From positions 1 through 20,340 of IMG/VR virus record IMGVR_UViG_3300045988_068454: DNA of 20,340 nt, one strand, 5' to 3'. The stretch's first letter is position 1. Every line of letters begins with the position of its first letter. The notes beneath the pieces are model-generated. The model had not been told where the DNA came from. It worked only from the letters and a program-made list of their open reading frames with translations, and did no database searches. Below, piece after piece: positions 13,427 to 20,340 of the stretch. Origin of the DNA: a virus. A program made the position numbers and the translations under genes.

Positions 13427-15496
13427 TCACCTCATTGTAAAATCAGTATCTACCAGTAACACACCACCCGGGATTCTCCTTGGCAGCAGTTTACCGGGAA
13501 TAGTTAAACCAACTTTAAAATCTGACAACGTTCTGGTTGTGGATAAGAACTGTATTTCTTCTGGTGTAAGACCTGAATCTTTTAGTTCTCGTTCCTCATT
13601 TCTCGGGTCTTTACCCTCTTCAATGTCTTTTGCAATAGTAGGGTCAAATGATTCTGCAAATAAATTTTTGCATCTTGCTGGCATACCGGCACATTTAATA
13701 TTGTAGTACGGCTTTTCAATAGGCTCTAAGTCCTCTTTTGTTACGTGCTCAATATACGTTTTTTGTCGTACAAACCAACCAACATCCCAGCTGGATTCAA
13801 GTTTCCAGCAGCAGAAATTAGTTGGATGCACCGTGATTCCTTTCAACTGCTCAGGTGACAGGTCACAATGTATGCTGTCTGTATCTGCGTAAATGAATCC
13901 GGGTTTATCTTGGCCGTAATAGTTTTTCTGTGCTGCTCGAATGGTAAAGTTCCGGGCGTAACTAGTGATAGCACTACCAACTGGGATGTATCCGGGTTTC
14001 TTTTCGTACTCTTCAACTTCATAATATCCAACACTTCCATCGTCTTTAAGATAAGCTACTTTGAATGATGATTCCATTGAACTTGCCATTTTACCATACA
14101 AGTTATTCAGGAATAGTTTTGCTAATGTACGCTTTGCTCCTTTACTGGTTTTCTTGATTGCTGCATACTTGTTAATGTACTCGTCAAAGATTCCAATTGC
14201 AGACGCGAACTCGCAATAGTCAAGCAGTTCATAATCTACTAAGTCGTAATGCTCACGTAATAGAATAAAATCTGTCTGTGTCAGTGTAAGTTCAACGCGC
14301 GTGTCGTGCAAGTTACCATCAACATCATAGTAATACTCACGAGCAACACCGTCTTTTCCAATAACGTCTGAACTTTCAAGGGCTTCTGTACCCTTGTACA
14401 TCCATGTACCCTTAATCTGAATAAAAGGAAGTTTCCCGGGCTTGAGATAGAATCTAGTTTTGATACGGAAAAAGTAGAAATGACCGTACTCATGTGGACG
14501 CGTAGGTTTTGGCTCTGGCTGAAACCAGAATGGATCATACTTAACAGGACATGTGCAATCACCGAAAATAGTTCCTTCATCTGCTTCAACATGAACGAAC
14601 TTTGGCATTCCGACAGGGTAATCAGAACCAGATTCAGAATGCATGACACTTGGATATAAGCTGTTCACATCTGCAGTAACACCGTTGTGAAACTCTTTAC
14701 ACTCCTTTTGCTTTACGATGTAGCACCATCCGCCTTTGTATGACTTGTGTATCCATTCGCCAGCATTCTTGCTGCCGAACTGCTCTTCGTCTAGCGGAAC
14801 TTTGTACAAGTCTGGGAAATAGTCATTGTATTCATCTTGCATTATGTTCCGATATTCACTAAGGCAACAGCTACCAATGGTCAACTTACGATGCCCCTCA
14901 GAGAACATAATCTCAAGCGCTTCTTTAATGACTAGAACATCGTTAGCGATGTACTTCATCTCTTCTTCTGTGATAGGACAACCGGCATAGCGTTCACCTT
15001 TGTATTCCATTTCAAGTTTCTGGTGCTTTGTTTGGAATGACTTGCCAATAGCTTTCAGGGAAAAAGGTAAAAGTTTTAAGCTGTCTCTGAGTTCTATGTA
15101 ATGGCCGTTCTGCTTGATAGTCATACTGTACCACTGTCCCATATCTGAGATTGCGTACTTGAATGACTTATCCGGCATATCCCAGTTCTTACGGAACTTA
15201 ATGTGCTTTTCATCAACTATGTCATAGGCTTGTTTGTACTTCAAGTCGTGCAAGAGGTAGTACATCCAGAAATTGCCATCAAATTTGAGGTTGTGAAAAT
15301 ACACTACAATGTTTTCGTCTAAGCTAATGTAGTAGTTGAACAAATCATCGATACTATGAAAAACCATAACGTCCTCTGTCCAAAGTTCCACACTAGCTGC
15401 AGACCAAACCTCAGTGCTTTTCTGTTCTCTTGTATTCTGTTCTACTGTTGTTTCAAAGTCTGCACTAAACGTGCGCCACTTTTCAGAACGTGCCAC
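13427..15496 (-). CDS. Protein-primed family-B DNA polymerase (phi29 gp2-like)
   Basis: GTG start with GAGGAA RBS. Exonuclease motifs: ExoI FSADFETT, ExoII HNLKFDGNF, ExoIII YIANDVLVIKEAL. Polymerase motifs: A DVNSLYPS, B KLFLNNLYGKMA, C YADTDS, and KxY RQKTYIEHV. All are close to the phi29 polymerase motifs. Confidence 0.97.
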   Translation of the reverse strand: MARSEKWRTFSADFETTVEQNTREQKSTEVWSAASVELWTEDVMVFHSIDDLFNYYISLDENIVVYFHNLKFDGNFWMYYLLHDLKYKQAYDIVDEKHIKFRKNWDMPDKSFKYAISDMGQWYSMTIKQNGHYIELRDSLKLLPFSLKAIGKSFQTKHQKLEMEYKGERYAGCPITEEEMKYIANDVLVIKEALEIMFSEGHRKLTIGSCCLSEYRNIMQDEYNDYFPDLYKVPLDEEQFGSKNAGEWIHKSYKGGWCYIVKQKECKEFHNGVTADVNSLYPSVMHSESGSDYPVGMPKFVHVEADEGTIFGDCTCPVKYDPFWFQPEPKPTRPHEYGHFYFFRIKTRFYLKPGKLPFIQIKGTWMYKGTEALESSDVIGKDGVAREYYYDVDGNLHDTRVELTLTQTDFILLREHYDLVDYELLDYCEFASAIGIFDEYINKYAAIKKTSKGAKRTLAKLFLNNLYGKMASSMESSFKVAYLKDDGSVGYYEVEEYEKKPGYIPVGSAITSYARNFTIRAAQKNYYGQDKPGFIYADTDSIHCDLSPEQLKGITVHPTNFCCWKLESSWDVGWFVRQKTYIEHVTKEDLEPIEKPYYNIKCAGMPARCKNLFAESFDPTIAKDIEEGKDPRNEERELKDSGLTPEEIQFLSTTRTLSDFKVGLTIPGKLLPRRIPGGVLLVDTDFTMR

Positions 15497-16405: not shown

Positions 16406-16753
16406 TTACTCAACGACCTTGCAGGAGATGTACTCGCGGCCATTCTTAGAAGTGCCGGTGACAACCTGAATCTTGGTGAACTCCTCACCGAACTGCTTGT
16501 ACATCTCGACGGCGTTGCCGAAGTCCTTGCAGAACGTGGTGCTGTTGGTGCAATACGACTTGCCATCATCGGTGGTCATAGCCATAAGGGTAACTTCATC
16601 ACCCTTGCTATTGACGTCAGTGTAGAGAACCCAGCTTGCCAGAGTCAGGGTCGCGCCCTTCACGGTGGTAAGCTTTTCGCGGTCAGGTGCCTGAGTCAGA
16701 ACATACAGGTCATGTGCGGAAGCAACGGAAGCGGACTTTGCAATGATATTCAT
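16406..16753 (-). CDS. Abundant early protein, 115 aa; candidate single-stranded DNA-binding protein
   Basis: TAAGGAG RBS. The size and position (upstream of TP and polymerase, followed by a terminator) parallel phi29 gp5. The sequence looks beta-rich and OB-like, with the C-terminal motif GTSKNGREY. The functional call is an inference. Confidence 0.4.
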   Translation of the reverse strand: MNIIAKSASVASAHDLYVLTQAPDREKLTTVKGATLTLASWVLYTDVNSKGDEVTLMAMTTDDGKSYCTNSTTFCKDFGNAVEMYKQFGEEFTKIQVVTGTSKNGREYISCKVVE

Positions 16754-17179: not shown

Positions 17180-17208
17180 ATTGTACCATAGAAATGGTAT
17201 AGGGTACA
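17180..17208 (-). promoter_or_regulatory. Internal early promoter (TG-extended TACAAT, weak -35 TGTACC)
   Basis: The minus strand reads TGTACC, a 17-nt spacer, then TACAAT with TGG immediately upstream (CTATGGTACAATAGAGG). The palindrome TACCAT-AGAA-ATGGTA overlaps the spacer. Confidence 0.55.
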
Positions 17209-17332
17209 TGCAGAATTGTTACAGTTGGGATAGACGATTGTCTCATTCGTGAAAAATTTAACAATCGGTATGCCCTCTGCAATTCTGTTCTAGGGTGGAA
17301 CTTTTAACAGATTCAGCATAGTTTTCAACTCC

Positions 17333-17399
17333 TTCTCGTGAGTAGTTCTCACGTTACGGCCCTGAACAGTGATGTTCAGAACCGTTGCCTGAGAATTAC
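17333..17399 (-). ncRNA. Unassigned structured RNA motif, copy 1 (R2 family)
   Basis: Sequence: GUAAUUCUCAGGCA-[ACGGUUCUGAAC-AUCACU-GUUCAGGGCCGU]-AA-[CGUGAG-AACUA-CUCACG]-AGAAGGAG. It begins at the stop codon of the upstream gene and ends at an RBS. Family-level covariation is described in the findings. Confidence 0.6.
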
Positions 17400-17686
17400 A
17401 GGTCAAATAACACCTCTAATTTGTGGTAGGTAAAGACGTCAAGCGGGTAATTGCTGCCATCCTTGACCACCCACACCGGAAGTCCTTCCTCAAGGGCGTA
17501 TTCCATTGCACGGATACATGATGGAAAAGTGTTTTCAGTGTCCGGATAAAATGAAATTTCCGGTTCATCGAACAGACGTTTGTCCATGCACCAGCGTGCG
17601 GACTGCACAACGGATACAGGGTATTGCTGACAAAGATAGTCAAACATCTTTGTTGCCAGTTCTCCGGCGTTCAAACGTGCGGACAT
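17396..17686 (-). CDS. Hypothetical early protein, 96 aa
   Basis: The ORF has a GGCGGTG-type RBS region and overlaps the upstream gene by 16 nt. No motif recognised. Confidence 0.6.
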   Translation of the reverse strand: MSARLNAGELATKMFDYLCQQYPVSVVQSARWCMDKRLFDEPEISFYPDTENTFPSCIRAMEYALEEGLPVWVVKDGSNYPLDVFTYHKLEVLFDL

Positions 17687-17871
17687 TGCTTCACACCGCC
17701 TTTCTTTTTATCTTCACGGCAGTCCATGTAGCCGGTGAGATAATCAAGGGCAGAATCCAAGTCTTTACGCGGTTCTGTGCCCTGAACAATGTCATTAGAA
17801 ACAATAGACAACGCATTGTACAAAGCAACGCATTCGGCATCTGAATAGTTTTTCAGAAACAAACGAATCAT
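17671..17871 (-). CDS. Hypothetical early protein, 66 aa
   Basis: GTGAGGTGA RBS and an ATGA overlap with the upstream stop. Confidence 0.65.
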   Translation of the reverse strand: MIRLFLKNYSDAECVALYNALSIVSNDIVQGTEPRKDLDSALDYLTGYMDCREDKKKGGVKQCPHV

Positions 17872-18038
17872 TCAATCACCTCACAATCAACATCAGGGTC
17901 ACAGATACCCAAAACGATATCTGCTACCAACCGTGTACCAGCAATAATGCCAAACATAGTCGCGGTATTGATTGCTGTACCTGCAATCCATGGTGAAAAA
18001 GCAACCCACCATAAGAAAGCTGTGACACTTGCAAACAT
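17868..18038 (-). CDS. Small membrane protein, 56 aa
   Basis: Start moved to ATG 18038 (AAAGGAG 7 nt upstream, directly after R2 copy 2). The sequence has two hydrophobic helices (MFASVTAFLWWVAFSPWIAGTAINTATMFGIIAGTRLVADIVLGI). Confidence 0.6.
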   Translation of the reverse strand: MFASVTAFLWWVAFSPWIAGTAINTATMFGIIAGTRLVADIVLGICDPDVDCEVIE

Positions 18039-18051
18039 ATAAACACTCCTT

Positions 18052-18116
18052 TTCTCGCGGGTAGTTCCCACGTTACGGCCCTGAACCGGGTTCAGAGTCG
18101 TTGCCTGAGAATTACT
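18052..18116 (-). ncRNA. Unassigned structured RNA motif, copy 2 (R2 family)
   Basis: Sequence: GUAAUUCUCAGGCA-[ACGACUCUGAAC-CCG-GUUCAGGGCCGU]-AA-[CGUGGG-AACUA-CCCGCG]-AGAAAAGGAG. The A-to-G change in the 3' hairpin relative to copy 1 is compensated by a U-to-C change. Confidence 0.6.
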
Positions 18117-18207
18117 ACAAAACTGTTAATGTGTAACCAATGCAATCAGGGCGGTGGTCAAGCATTTTATCGGCTGCTGCAATGGCTATTCTATGAGTCG
18201 TATATTG

Positions 18208-18282
18208 TCACTCAACAACAGCAACACTATCTTCAACACTGCCAATATGCACTTTGAAAAATTCAATACGATACCAACGCAT
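18208..18282 (-). CDS. 24-aa mini-ORF (MRWYRIEFFKVHIGSVEDSVAVVE)
   Basis: Too short for the ORF track. AAAGGAG lies 7 nt upstream of ATG 18282, and this RBS overlaps the stop codon of the upstream gene. Confidence 0.35.
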   Translation of the reverse strand: MRWYRIEFFKVHIGSVEDSVAVVE

Positions 18283-18295
18283 TGTAACGCTCCTT

Positions 18296-18598
18296 TCATT
18301 CGTTCTTCAAGAACTCCCAAACCGTTTTACAACCAGCTGCCCTACGGTAACAAGCATAAGCTAATTCATACCTATTAAACCGCAAGTAAACTTCATCACC
18401 ATTATAAAATCCGGGTTCATACAGGTGAACTGTATAAACTTCACCCTCTGGATATTGCTCATTTACAAGCACACCACCAGTAGGAAGAAATTTTAAAACA
18501 GGCTCACCAGTGAGTTCACCCAAAAGACTGGTATGATTGAACTCTAAGTAATGGTTAATGCCGTCAATCGTTAAGGGCTTAATCTTTATAACCTTCAT
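18296..18598 (-). CDS. Hypothetical early protein, 100 aa
   Basis: Start moved to ATG 18598 (AAAGAGG 7 nt upstream). The MMGNQHSNAK... extension in the ORF track is read-through of hammerhead copy A and its leader. Confidence 0.7.
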   Translation of the reverse strand: MKVIKIKPLTIDGINHYLEFNHTSLLGELTGEPVLKFLPTGGVLVNEQYPEGEVYTVHLYEPGFYNGDEVYLRFNRYELAYACYRRAAGCKTVWEFLKNE

Positions 18599-18639
18599 GA
18601 TTATACCTCTTTTCTGTGTTCTGTCTTTGGCGTTACTGT

Positions 18640-18712
18640 GTTGGTTTCCCATCATCAGCGCACAAGTAACCAGCTTGTGCGGACAGGCATTGCTGCCTGT
18701 TTCGGGTTAACG
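18640..18712 (-). ncRNA. Type II hammerhead self-cleaving ribozyme, copy A
   Basis: GAAA is the complement of 18700-18703. Stem III is ACAGGCA-GCAA-UGCCUGU. The cleavage triplet is GUC, with C17 opposite 18682. Stem I is CGCACAAG-CUGGUUA-CUUGUGCG. CUGAUGA is the complement of 18652-18658. Stem II is CCC/GGG. Loop I UGGUU is complementary to the 3' tail AACCA. Confidence 0.85.
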
Positions 18713-18713
18713 A

Positions 18714-18968
18714 TTATAACCTCTTTTCTACCATATTCCAGCACCAATGCTGCACGGTGGTCAAGCCGTATGTATAATCAGCGGCAACTTTGTGCATTTC
18801 ATACTGAAAACTTTGAGAAGCGGTATTGGTAAACGTTGCCACAAGAGCATTGTTCATCTCGAGCTTATAGAAACTATAATCACTCCGCTGAACAAGCTGC
18901 AGTGAATCACCGTATACACTGTTAACATAGCGCCCATTCAGGCACTGGTCAATCTTAACCAATAGCAT
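18714..18968 (-). CDS. Hypothetical early protein, 84 aa
   Basis: ATG 18968 is preceded by the conserved leader and an AGAGG RBS. The stop lies 1 nt before hammerhead copy A. Confidence 0.7.
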   Translation of the reverse strand: MLLVKIDQCLNGRYVNSVYGDSLQLVQRSDYSFYKLEMNNALVATFTNTASQSFQYEMHKVAADYTYGLTTVQHWCWNMVEKRL

Positions 18969-19008
18969 ATTATACCTCTTTTCTGTGTTCTGTCTTTGGC
19001 GTTACTGT

Positions 19009-19081
19009 GTTGGTTTCCCATCATCAGCGCACAAGTAACCAGCTTGTACGGACAGGCATTGCTGCCTGTTTCGGGTTAACG
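19009..19081 (-). ncRNA. Type II hammerhead self-cleaving ribozyme, copy B
   Basis: Identical to copy A except for one stem I change (CGUACAAG), which turns a C-G pair into a U-G wobble. CUGAUGA is the complement of 19021-19027, GAAA of 19069-19072, and C17 lies opposite 19051. Its 5' edge overlaps the stop codon of the upstream gene. Confidence 0.85.
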
Positions 19082-19438
19082 AATTGCTTTGCCAACATTG
19101 ACATAATGCTCAAACATTTCGACCGCATTCAACATCAAGCCGTCAATCCAAATGTGCCCACCTACATCAGTATCACGGCACTGGAAATACAGGTTAGAGC
19201 CGATCAACTCTTGAGTGAAACGATTTACATGCCGGGCCGTTGTTTTGCTGCACCCAACATAATGTTCAATCAAAATATCAATTGCATCAGTTTCATCAGG
19301 CCCGACAGATACATTAAGAATGCAAGTGCTGTACGACCAAAGACGAATGTTGCGCAAGATACTAAAATCATCAACAATAAACTCAACGTGGCAGTTTGCA
19401 GCGGGCATAGAAATCATGTGATAGTTGTAGCTTTTCAT
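19076..19438 (-). CDS. Hypothetical early protein, 120 aa
   Basis: Start moved to ATG 19438 (GAGAGG 8 nt upstream). The MMGNHTDVPK... extension in the ORF track is hammerhead copy C plus its leader. Confidence 0.7.
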   Translation of the reverse strand: MKSYNYHMISMPAANCHVEFIVDDFSILRNIRLWSYSTCILNVSVGPDETDAIDILIEHYVGCSKTTARHVNRFTQELIGSNLYFQCRDTDVGGHIWIDGLMLNAVEMFEHYVNVGKAIR

Positions 19439-19477
19439 AATATTTACCTCTCTTGTTCTGTGTTTTGGCACGTCTGT

Positions 19478-19550
19478 GTGGTTTCCCATCATCAGCGCAC
19501 AAGTAACCAGCTTGTGCGGACAGGCATTGCTGCCTGTTTCGGGATTAAAT
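19478..19550 (-). ncRNA. Type II hammerhead self-cleaving ribozyme, copy C
   Basis: The core and stems I and III are the same as in copy A. CUGAUGA is the complement of 19489-19495, GAAA of 19537-19540, and C17 lies opposite 19519. The 5' flank differs (AAUCCC), which allows a fourth stem II pair (U-A). The downstream leader has diverged. Confidence 0.85.
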
Positions 19551-19778
19551 GAGGTGCAGTGTGTAGTTCATATTTACACAGCCGGAATGCTTGCAGGACG
19601 CGTGCAAATTGCGAACGTCACCGACCGAAACCACATTATAACCGGAATACAAAAGCCAGCGCGGTGTGTCAAACTTGTCGTCAATAACCAATTTGTCGCC
19701 CCAAAGTTGGCAGATGTAGGATTCTGTCTTACCAATAATGGAATCATGGATAGCGGTAACAACAATGTTGTAAGTCAT
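19545..19778 (-). CDS. Hypothetical early protein, 77 aa (first gene of the early operon)
   Basis: Start moved to ATG 19778 (AAAGAGGAA 7 nt upstream). The stop codon abuts hammerhead copy C. Confidence 0.65.
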   Translation of the reverse strand: MTYNIVVTAIHDSIIGKTESYICQLWGDKLVIDDKFDTPRWLLYSGYNVVSVGDVRNLHASCKHSGCVNMNYTLHLI

Positions 19779-19808
19779 AATAGTTCCTCTTTTCTTTGTT
19801 ATGTACAT

Positions 19809-19893
19809 TCGTGGTATTCCCACGTTGCAATGCACGACATTCAGCACCAATTTACCGGCTGCCTATTGTCATGCACTGCTGCCTAAGAATACG
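19809..19893 (-). ncRNA. Unassigned structured RNA motif, copy 3 (R2 family, divergent helix)
   Basis: Sequence: GUAUUCUUAGGCA-[GCAGUGCAUGAC-29 nt loop-GUCGUGCAUUGC]-AA-[CGUGG-GAAUA-CCACG]. The junction nucleotides match copies 1 and 2, but the 12-bp helix has an entirely different sequence. Confidence 0.55.
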
Positions 19894-20039
19894 CAACAGA
19901 ATAGAAGTGTTTTCAATATTCAGTTGTCAAGGTACGTTGATTGCTTGTTGGATTGAAAGCCGGTGAACGTCTCGACCATGCTACCACGTGCCATGCCCAT
20001 CGACCTTGCTACCGGGCTTTTGGCTTTAGCTCCCCATTT

Positions 20040-20068
20040 ATTGTACCACACTCTGTGTGGTTTGTCAA
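20040..20068 (-). promoter_or_regulatory. Strong early promoter (TTGACA, 17-nt spacer, TACAAT, TG-extended)
   Basis: The minus strand reads CTCTTGACA-AACCACACAGAGTGTGG-TACAAT-AAATGG. The spacer contains the perfect inverted repeat CCACAC-AGA-GTGTGG. Confidence 0.75.
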
Positions 20069-20152
20069 GAGGTTTTTTCTTGAGCTTTGCGGTGTGGACT
20101 TACCAGCTGCCTTACCACGTTCACTCTTGAACGTCCCTATTTTGACACCCTT

Positions 20153-20163
20153 ATTATACCATA
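20153..20163 (-). promoter_or_regulatory. Upstream early promoter candidate (TG-extended TATAAT)
   Basis: The minus strand reads GACATATGGTATAATAAGGG. It has a perfect extended -10 element but no properly spaced -35. It lies about 110 bp upstream of the consensus early promoter. Confidence 0.5.
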
Positions 20164-20310
20164 TGTCAAGCCCCATTGCAACCCCCTACAGCAAATATAC
20201 TTGCATGTGTGCATCGATCTGTACTAGCATGCGTGGCACGTTGTATACTACAGGCGCCCCTGTGACAGTGCAAGCTTGGATACAACGCTACCACTGTACG
20301 TTGTGGGGGG

Positions 20311-20340
20311 GTACACGCCCCCGTTGTTCTTATTCCTAAC
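20311..20340. repeat. Right inverted terminal repeat (30 bp)
   Basis: Exact reverse complement of 1-30. Confidence 0.97.

Follow-up and report, generated by a model that had tools for sequence, protein, structure and literature searches.

What does a structured RNA element do when it shares the early operon of a small phage with self-cleaving ribozymes and occupies the same kind of position? The question is raised by a 20,340-nucleotide stretch of viral DNA (IMG/VR record IMGVR_UViG_3300045988_068454, positions 1 to 20,340; hereafter the window), which is most or all of a small phi29-like phage genome with a protein-primed DNA polymerase. Its early region, on the minus strand at the right end (20340 down to about 17300), consists of small open reading frames (ORFs) of unassigned family that are divided by six non-coding cassettes: three type II hammerheads and three copies of an element that we call M. 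We find that M is a genuine structured RNA family absent from Rfam, with a two-state design. It is very probably an RNA processing or punctuation element of some kind, and we propose with moderate confidence that it serves as an endonucleolytic processing cassette of the early polycistronic mRNA, both between cistrons and in the 5' leader, of the type represented by the RNase III sites of phages T7 and SP82.

A structured RNA family with two competing folds

A covariance model built from 10 M copies recovered the three elements of the window with 92, 81 and 54 bits (E values of 7e-17 to 2e-8) and detected 111 sense-strand copies. Each of the 41 related IMG/VR contigs with an early region carries one to four of them; these contigs represent phi29-like gut phages with polymerases at least 79% identical. 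With a second-generation model for distant relatives, one copy (44.8 bits, E 4e-8) was found in L092, a distant AT-rich phage whose polymerase is 62% identical. The covariance-model search suggested along with the original prediction, a description of the window drawn from its letters only, has accordingly returned homologues, and these show covariation.

The family consensus reads G-U-A-A-U-U-C-C-U-A / G-G-Y-N / 12 base-pair (bp) helix with free loop / A-A-C-G / U-G-G-G-A-A-Y-U-A-C / C-A-C-G. In fold 1 it forms a single irregular hairpin with a lower stem of 9–11 bp (nucleotides 1-10 with 72-81), a small conserved internal loop and an upper helix of 12 bp. The internal loop (3-4 x 4) comprises G11.G71, one pair between positions 12 and 70 (G12-C70), and Y13 N14 opposite A68 A69. 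Among 77 distinct sequences, 96.3% of the cells are paired and 18 of the 23 pairs have changed on both sides, a value reached by none of 500 shuffles, and slid partners are paired in 32–47% of cells; the alignment was fitted to the model, so that these counts lean toward structure, but the effect is large. Contrasting lower stems include GUAAUUCCUA/UGGGAACUAC, GAUAUCCACA/UGGGGAUAUC, CUAACUCAUA/UGUGAGUUAC and AUUAAUUUCA/UGAAAUUAAU, and L092 has A-U instead of G-C as its loop pair and an upper helix that keeps the length of 12 bp with an unrelated sequence. Abundant G.U pairs and much lower model scores on the reverse strand place the constraint at the RNA level, on the transcribed strand. The family is phylogenetically shallow, comprising one clade and one outlier, so independent events are fewer than the sequence counts imply, although the paralogous types and L092 supply several compensatory changes that are clearly independent. 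Covariation in this wider family bears out the functional RNA fold that had been proposed from compensatory changes in the 12-bp helix and the short hairpin of the window copies.

The conserved core is tiny (G11, the 12-70 pair, C13, A68, A69 and G71). Of the junction nucleotides that were thought to be invariant, AGGCA proved variable, the 5' side of the loop being A-G-G-Y-N family-wide (GGCC is commonest, and GGCA, GGUC, GGCU, GGUU and GGAC also occur), whereas the AA belongs to a 3' side, AACG, that is nearly invariant across the family. The upper helix has at least 12 bp in nearly all copies; three leader copies with an extended arm have about 10 bp. The terminal loop of the helix varies freely from 3 to 29 nucleotides (nt), and there is no conserved tertiary contact or pseudoknot. 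That the helix is rarely short and measures 12 bp even in L092 suggests a minimum length of double-stranded RNA (dsRNA), not a tertiary contact.

In fold 2 the upper helix is kept and C70-G74 pairs with the 4–6 nt that follow the lower stem, forming a short hairpin termed P3. This hairpin is possible in essentially every copy and covaries (CGUGG/CCACG, CGUGAG/CUCACG, CGUGGG/CCCGCG, CGUGU/ACACG in two contexts, CGUGUG/CACACG and CGUAG/CUACG, with UGUGA/UCACA in L092). Position 74 (G/A/U) tracks both position 8 (C/U/A) and the P3 partner (C/U/A), and the C70-to-U change of L092 is accompanied by two compensating changes from G to A, at position 12 and at the end of P3. The two folds are mutually exclusive and, as the shared nucleotides covary with both partners, both are under selection; the earlier picture of helices joined by invariant single-stranded junctions was misleading in this respect. 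The long irregular hairpin that it offered as a secondary alternative does exist, and is the dominant fold by energy as well as strongly covarying: fold 1 is more stable than fold 2 in 74 of 74 distinct sequences, by 5.2 kcal/mol on average (range 0.9–10.5). The strands of fold 1 are also transcribed ahead of the 3' arm of P3. Because P3 excludes the lower stem, is less stable and is completed later during transcription, it needs the 5' strand to be removed. Leader-type copies without an upstream ORF keep P3, with a compensatory change (L091:313), which argues for cleavage and not for unwinding by ribosomes. Strand-separating cleavage would be the simplest common explanation for the retention of P3.

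Other arrangements of these strands were rejected. A three-way junction, in which the 5' UUCUC pairs with GAGAA after P3, fails in copies with GAUAUCC... lower stems, which lack a complementary sequence beyond P3, and also in copies 1 and 2 of the window, where the G is already part of P3. A pseudoknot with lower stem and P3 formed together is disfavored by topology, as every nucleotide of the 7-nt P3 loop would have to pair and the connectors crossing the shallow groove would have a length of zero. The likeness of CGUGG...CCACG in P3 to P1 of a pistol ribozyme is regarded as a coincidence: the Rfam Pistol model gives no match and the strand order is mirrored. Judged by eye, M matches no K-turn, loop E or tetraloop receptor.

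The three copies in the window

The original prediction had placed three minus-strand elements of shared architecture in the early region, and a parse checked base by base agrees with the covariance-model scores on all three. Copy 1 (17399-17337, minus strand, 80.7 bits) reads GUAAUUCUCA GGCA ACGGUUCUGAAC AUCACU GUUCAGGGCCGU AA CG UGAGAACUAC UCACG and lies between an ORF of 96 amino acids (17396-17686) and a mini-ORF at 17319. The 5' strand of its lower stem (17399-17390) contains the UAA stop of the upstream ORF (17398-17396) and is followed by the GGCA loop (17389-17386), the upper helix (17385-17374 with 17367-17356, loop 17373-17368), the AA (17355-17354), and CG with the 3' strand of the lower stem (17353-17342); P3 pairs 17353-17348 with 17342-17337. 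Copy 2 (18115-18056, minus strand, 92.1 bits) follows the same plan with the loop CCG and the P3 CGUGGG/CCCGCG. Its lower stem (18115-18106 with 18070-18061), GGCA loop (18105-18102), upper helix (18101-18090 with 18086-18075), AA (18074-18073) and P3 (18072-18067 with 18061-18056) lie between an interrupted small ORF (18282-18118) and a membrane-like ORF of 56 amino acids starting at 18038.

Copy 3 (19892-19810, minus strand, 53.7 bits) is of the leader type and separates the promoter/leader region from the first early ORF (ATG at 19778), with the plan GUAUUCUUA GGCA GCAGUGCAUGAC (29 nt) GUCGUGCAUUGC AA CG UGGGAAUAC CACG. Its lower stem has 9 bp (19892-19884 with 19822-19814), the A and the C of an A.C mismatch both being deleted, and is followed by the GGCA loop (19883-19880), the upper arm (19879-19827), the AA (19826-19825) and P3 (19824-19820 with 19814-19810). 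The 29 nt previously described as a loop are correct in length, but are a structured extension of the upper arm, which consists of 13 bp, an internal loop and 7 more bp. Copy 3 is also the place where the ribosome-binding site (RBS), thought to follow each element directly, is about 25 nt away. The letters after P3 are AGAAGGAG, AGAAAAGG and AAUGUACA in the three copies; no U tract follows any of them and no terminator-like site is present at the three elements, so that an intrinsic terminator is rejected, as it was at the outset.

Distribution of the family

The significance of M rests on the whole element, since the short pattern TTCTYAGGCA alone is not significant (3 seen against 2.6 expected with one mismatch allowed). 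The second-generation model found no M copy in about 90 sister-clade contigs. Pattern scans of IMG/VR gave true matches in a single clade, on contigs of 18–21 kb, once about 30 chance matches of the first scan had been removed by folding. Two pattern scans of 185,579 bacterial and archaeal genomes, with patterns that cover the common lower-stem types, gave 0 matches; as searches of the large collections reach copies with such common lower stems, the distribution may be wider. A metagenome scan for the L092-type copy returned one contig, probably of the same phage. Nucleotide comparison (blastn) with GenBank phages gave no match to the window and none to M.

Rfam 15 models, run with cmscan at E values up to 10 on 17200-20340 and on positions 1-2200 of the related contig L072, matched only the three hammerheads and chance miRNA-like hairpins. 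None of the known self-cleaving classes in Rfam (hammerhead, twister, twister-sister, pistol, hatchet, HDV-like, hairpin) matches M; the failure to recognize a hammerhead, twister or pistol core by eye is thereby extended to ribozyme and cis-regulatory models, which are empty at M. The other ribozyme-associated or phage RNA motifs in Rfam 15, which are expected to comprise Drum and skipping-rope, likewise include no model that matches M.

Exchange of M with hammerheads and tRNA-like modules

The type II hammerheads of the window (19477-19544, 36.0 bits; 19009-19076, 37.1 bits; 18640-18707, 39 bits and above the gathering score; all minus strand) occupy intercistronic slots equivalent to those of M, and in the early operons of relatives the two are mixed in every possible order. 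Behind an orthologous gene (...NFWNEYQQYGK.F.Y*), the junction holds M in L072 but a hammerhead in L076, L079 and L049, with the same RBS block after either element, which confirms the proposal that both use the same slots. The distance from M to the RBS is 2–7 nt in internal copies and about 20 nt in leader copies, and the stop codon of the upstream ORF is a UAA at element positions 2-4 in 65 of the 111 copies, other stops being located within 15 nt. In L050 (985-1075), the 5' remnant of a hammerhead (GUCGAAACACCGG) is fused straight to an M copy, on account of which the cassettes appear to be recombination joints for the shuffling of early gene modules. Microhomology exists between stem III of the hammerheads of relatives (CACCGGGUAUCCGGUG) and the 5' half of M (GGCCGGUAUCC).

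Clustered hammerheads that flank genes in phage and prophage transcripts have been described before (Perreault et al. 2011, PMC3088659). M resembles them in its punctuation (stop codon, element, RBS) and in its use of the same junction in different genomes, but differs in having no hammerhead core, Rfam match or three-way junction. Cleavage of a type II hammerhead after GUC leaves an upstream RNA that ends in stem III and a downstream RNA that opens with the stem I hairpin. A cut of M at the AA between the 12-bp helix and P3 would give products of hammerhead-like geometry.

In sister clades without M, the same slot is taken by one to seven tRNA-like modules per early operon, each with an acceptor-like stem, a linker of about 11 nt and a T-arm with a GGUUCAANUCC-type loop (L099:895-990, 1285-1375 and 1585-1675; seven copies between 250 and 3290 in L093; further modules in L160, L116 and L186, and at L092:2417-2500). 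ARAGORN did not call these sister-clade modules as tRNAs. Their order is stop codon, module, UUU or UUA (about 3 nt), a small 5-bp hairpin and RBS, and the T-arm pattern occurs in 0 of 51 M-clade loci and at least once in most sister loci. The early region of L092 holds a hammerhead, an M copy and a tRNA-like module together. In mitochondria, tRNAs punctuate polycistronic transcripts, and the sister-clade modules look like tRNA-style punctuation of phage mRNAs. M resembles that system in that a structured element lies between ORFs, would be open to cutting by a host RNase and would leave a downstream RNA with a small hairpin near its start, but M has neither T-arm nor acceptor features. That one slot accommodates three unrelated cassettes, with a small hairpin after each, strongly suggests that their shared function is to cut the transcript and cap the new ends.

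A candidate processing site of the early mRNA

The early transcript from two consensus sigma-70-type promoters (20181-20153 and 20068-20040, minus strand, conserved in relatives) bears all six cassettes. Early mRNA of T7 is likewise punctuated by hairpins, in each of which a single RNase III cut in the 3' strand leaves the upstream mRNA with a 3' hairpin. When folded, the T7 sites R0.3, R0.5, R1, R1.1 and R1.3, whose positions we take to be those of Dunn and Studier 1983, all show an upper stem of 9–13 bp set on a lower stem, with a small internal loop between the two, and these paralogous sites have loop and 3'-strand sequence in common. The resemblance to T7 early processing sites suggested by the original prediction is therefore upheld at the level of the overall plan. 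In both systems, tandem promoters of the host type precede a set of paralogous hairpins that occupy the leader and the gaps between early genes, and both combine a lower stem and a small internal loop with an upper stem of about one helical turn. As in phage RNase III sites generally, M is a hairpin of about two turns interrupted by a small internal loop, with paralogous copies in the leader and between the cistrons of an early transcript. M differs from the T7 sites in that it has no sequence similarity to them, belongs to a phage of a Firmicute and not of E. coli, has in P3 an additional, selected refolding hairpin over the lower stem, and is exchanged with ribozymes; its cleavage, moreover, is a prediction.

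Another parallel is phage SP82, whose early-mRNA sites for Bs-RNase III (Panganiban and Whiteley 1983) are described in PMC1935012 and PMC4838370; according to PMC1935012, Bs-RNase III cuts the internal-loop hairpins of SP82 once, in the downstream strand. The likeness lies in hairpins with internal loops in the early mRNA of a Gram-positive phage, whereas SP82 is a large myovirus, and the comparison is one with a published description.

We infer the following course of events, and this applies to cleavage itself, to the enzyme and where it cuts, and to protection by both hairpins. Nascent M would fold as one long irregular hairpin, equivalent to about 26 bp, which a double-strand-specific endonuclease, most likely host RNase III, would recognize and cut once in the 3' strand, at or beside the invariant AA, as at the T7 and SP82 sites. 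The upstream mRNA would then end in the 12-bp hairpin as a 3' protector. The freed 3' strand of the lower stem, together with the next 4–6 nt, could refold as P3, which begins right after the AA and would cap the downstream mRNA at its 5' end, immediately before the RBS. P3 fits the logic of a downstream RNA that starts with a hairpin, as seen in the stem I product of hammerheads and in the hairpins after tRNA-like modules. A helix of at least 12 bp with a free loop and no long-range contact fits a dsRNA-binding ruler better than a catalytic core. Seven early proteins of the window were compared with L092 and none has a detectable homologue there, which points to a conserved host enzyme as the probable factor, unless M is self-sufficient. 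A phage-encoded factor was rejected: Pfam and PHROGs scans of ten early proteins matched only a phi29-type single-stranded DNA-binding protein (16409-16753) and no RNA-binding family, and L092 shares none of the seven tested.

Several points weigh against cleavage by an RNase III-type enzyme. The cut itself is read from sequence and predicted fold; the host is Clostridia-like and the specificity rules of its RNase III may differ; the very strong constraint on G11, A68, A69 and G71 might as well be due to another protein or a catalytic core; and a phage that uses hammerheads is not obviously in need of a host nuclease. Contig ends at M, considered as possible RNA ends, were discarded as uninformative, since the public contigs are DNA assemblies. 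One short contig (L228:1-20, Logan ERR14115744) starts within the 3' arm of P3 of a copy 2 homologue, most likely at a repeat-induced assembly break rather than an RNA end.

Alternative functions of M

If RNase III is not the ligand of M, another host or phage protein could be, acting as translational repressor, stabilizer or endonuclease (e.g., RNase Y), with cleavage optional. Protein operators typically have, as M does, a conserved asymmetric loop between helices that keep a minimum length, and the RBS is near, 2–7 nt downstream of internal copies and about 20 nt downstream of leader copies. However, the RBS is free in both folds, which leaves no obvious logic of occlusion, neither the seven early proteins tested in L092 (0 shared) nor the ten scanned (0 with an RNA-binding family) offer a partner, and the selection on P3 and the exchange with hammerheads stay unexplained unless cleavage is involved. 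We regard this possibility as doubtful, and as only slightly less doubtful than that of a new, very small class of self-cleaving ribozyme, in which the loop would splay A68/A69 for in-line attack and formation of P3 would strip off the 3' product, making cleavage irreversible, and which would be used interchangeably with hammerheads and tRNA-like modules. A ribozyme would account for the shared slot and the exchange with hammerheads, for invariant loop nucleotides amid covarying helices, for the lack of a match to known families, and for the presence of M in two phages of very different G+C content without shared early proteins, as expected of a self-contained element. Yet the conserved nucleotides of M that are unpaired or mismatched number only about six, all within one internal loop, and the known natural self-cleaving classes depend on cores of greater complexity; the terminal loop is free (3 to 29 nt) with no conserved tertiary contact or pseudoknot, the spread is narrow (one phage clade and a singleton in IMG/VR, none in bacterial genomes), and the constraint on helix length resembles a protein ruler. 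The original prediction had left the choice between ribozyme and host-RNase site undecided; the tiny core, the free loops and the missing tertiary contact make the former less likely and a site for a protein endonuclease more likely.

Two further readings draw on the surroundings of M. Were M a ribosome-driven switch, termination at the UAA in the lower stem would melt the stem, let P3 form and couple expression of the downstream gene. The position of the upstream stop within or close to the element agrees with this, whereas the leader copies that keep P3 with a compensatory change in the absence of an upstream ORF, the RBS that neither fold sequesters, and the replacement by hammerheads, which a switch does not explain, make it improbable. 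Still less credit is due to mimicry of a tRNA acceptor/T-arm minihelix cut by RNase P and/or RNase Z. It draws on the 12 bp of the hairpin, equal to 7 + 5 bp, on the A after the helix in the place of a discriminator base, and on the tRNA-like modules that sister clades carry in the same slot, followed by a small hairpin. M, however, has no T-loop, its loops being 3–6 nt of any sequence or a long extension, and neither CCA nor a U-rich trailer; its leader and trailer are paired in a covarying 10-bp stem that should block both enzymes; and ARAGORN found no tRNA in the window, nor did the Rfam tRNA model at the M copies.

Other features of the early region

The polymerase of the window (689 amino acids, 13427-15496, minus strand) is at best 59% identical to those of uncultured human-gut phages and 56% identical to those of Clostridium symbiosum phages. 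On the minus strand, each consensus promoter precedes a leader of about 100 nt (19895-20150) that is highly conserved in close relatives and looks structured (e.g., AAAGCCCGGU...ACCGGCUUU); this region gave no pRNA match in Rfam. As M copy 3 lies between the leader and the first ORF, processing there could free a small leader RNA.

Right after copy 1 (17290-17319, minus strand), a good RBS precedes a conserved mini-ORF of 9 codons, MLN/KLLKVPP-stop. A longer form likewise ends in VPP-stop, and stops fill the downstream frame in most relatives. In L072, the mini-ORF is followed by a terminator-like hairpin with a U run (2018-2037) and then by a conserved promoter-like block (TATGGTACAAT); the alignment of the region after copy 1 shows promoter-like conserved blocks. 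The mini-ORF may be a Pro-Pro-stop leader peptide that governs read-through into the replication genes. Upstream of copy 2, the small ORF at 18118-18282 (minus strand) contains an in-frame TGA (MRWYRIEFF...VVE*QYTTHR...), at which its intact homologue of 58 amino acids in L076 has Arg (VVERQYSTHR); in this genome the TGA represents either a nonsense mutation or a site of read-through.

Implications

If M is a site of the RNase III type, these phages would use three mechanistically unrelated RNA-cutting cassettes as interchangeable punctuation of early genes: the hammerhead, which cleaves itself, a hairpin that depends on a nuclease and the tRNA-like modules of sister clades, with both products of a cut ending in hairpins. 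In the literature that we searched, no description of three such interchangeable cassettes punctuating early genes was found. M would then also lend itself, as a compact natural part, to the insulation and processing of operons in Firmicutes, because its refolding step turns a processing hairpin into a 5' cap, and its more than 70 natural variants would form a defined substrate family on which to work out how RNase III of gut Clostridia selects its sites. Self-cleavage, on the other hand, would make M a new minimal class of ribozyme. Most likely, M is functionally equivalent to the neighboring hammerheads, as an RNA-processing cassette of the phage.

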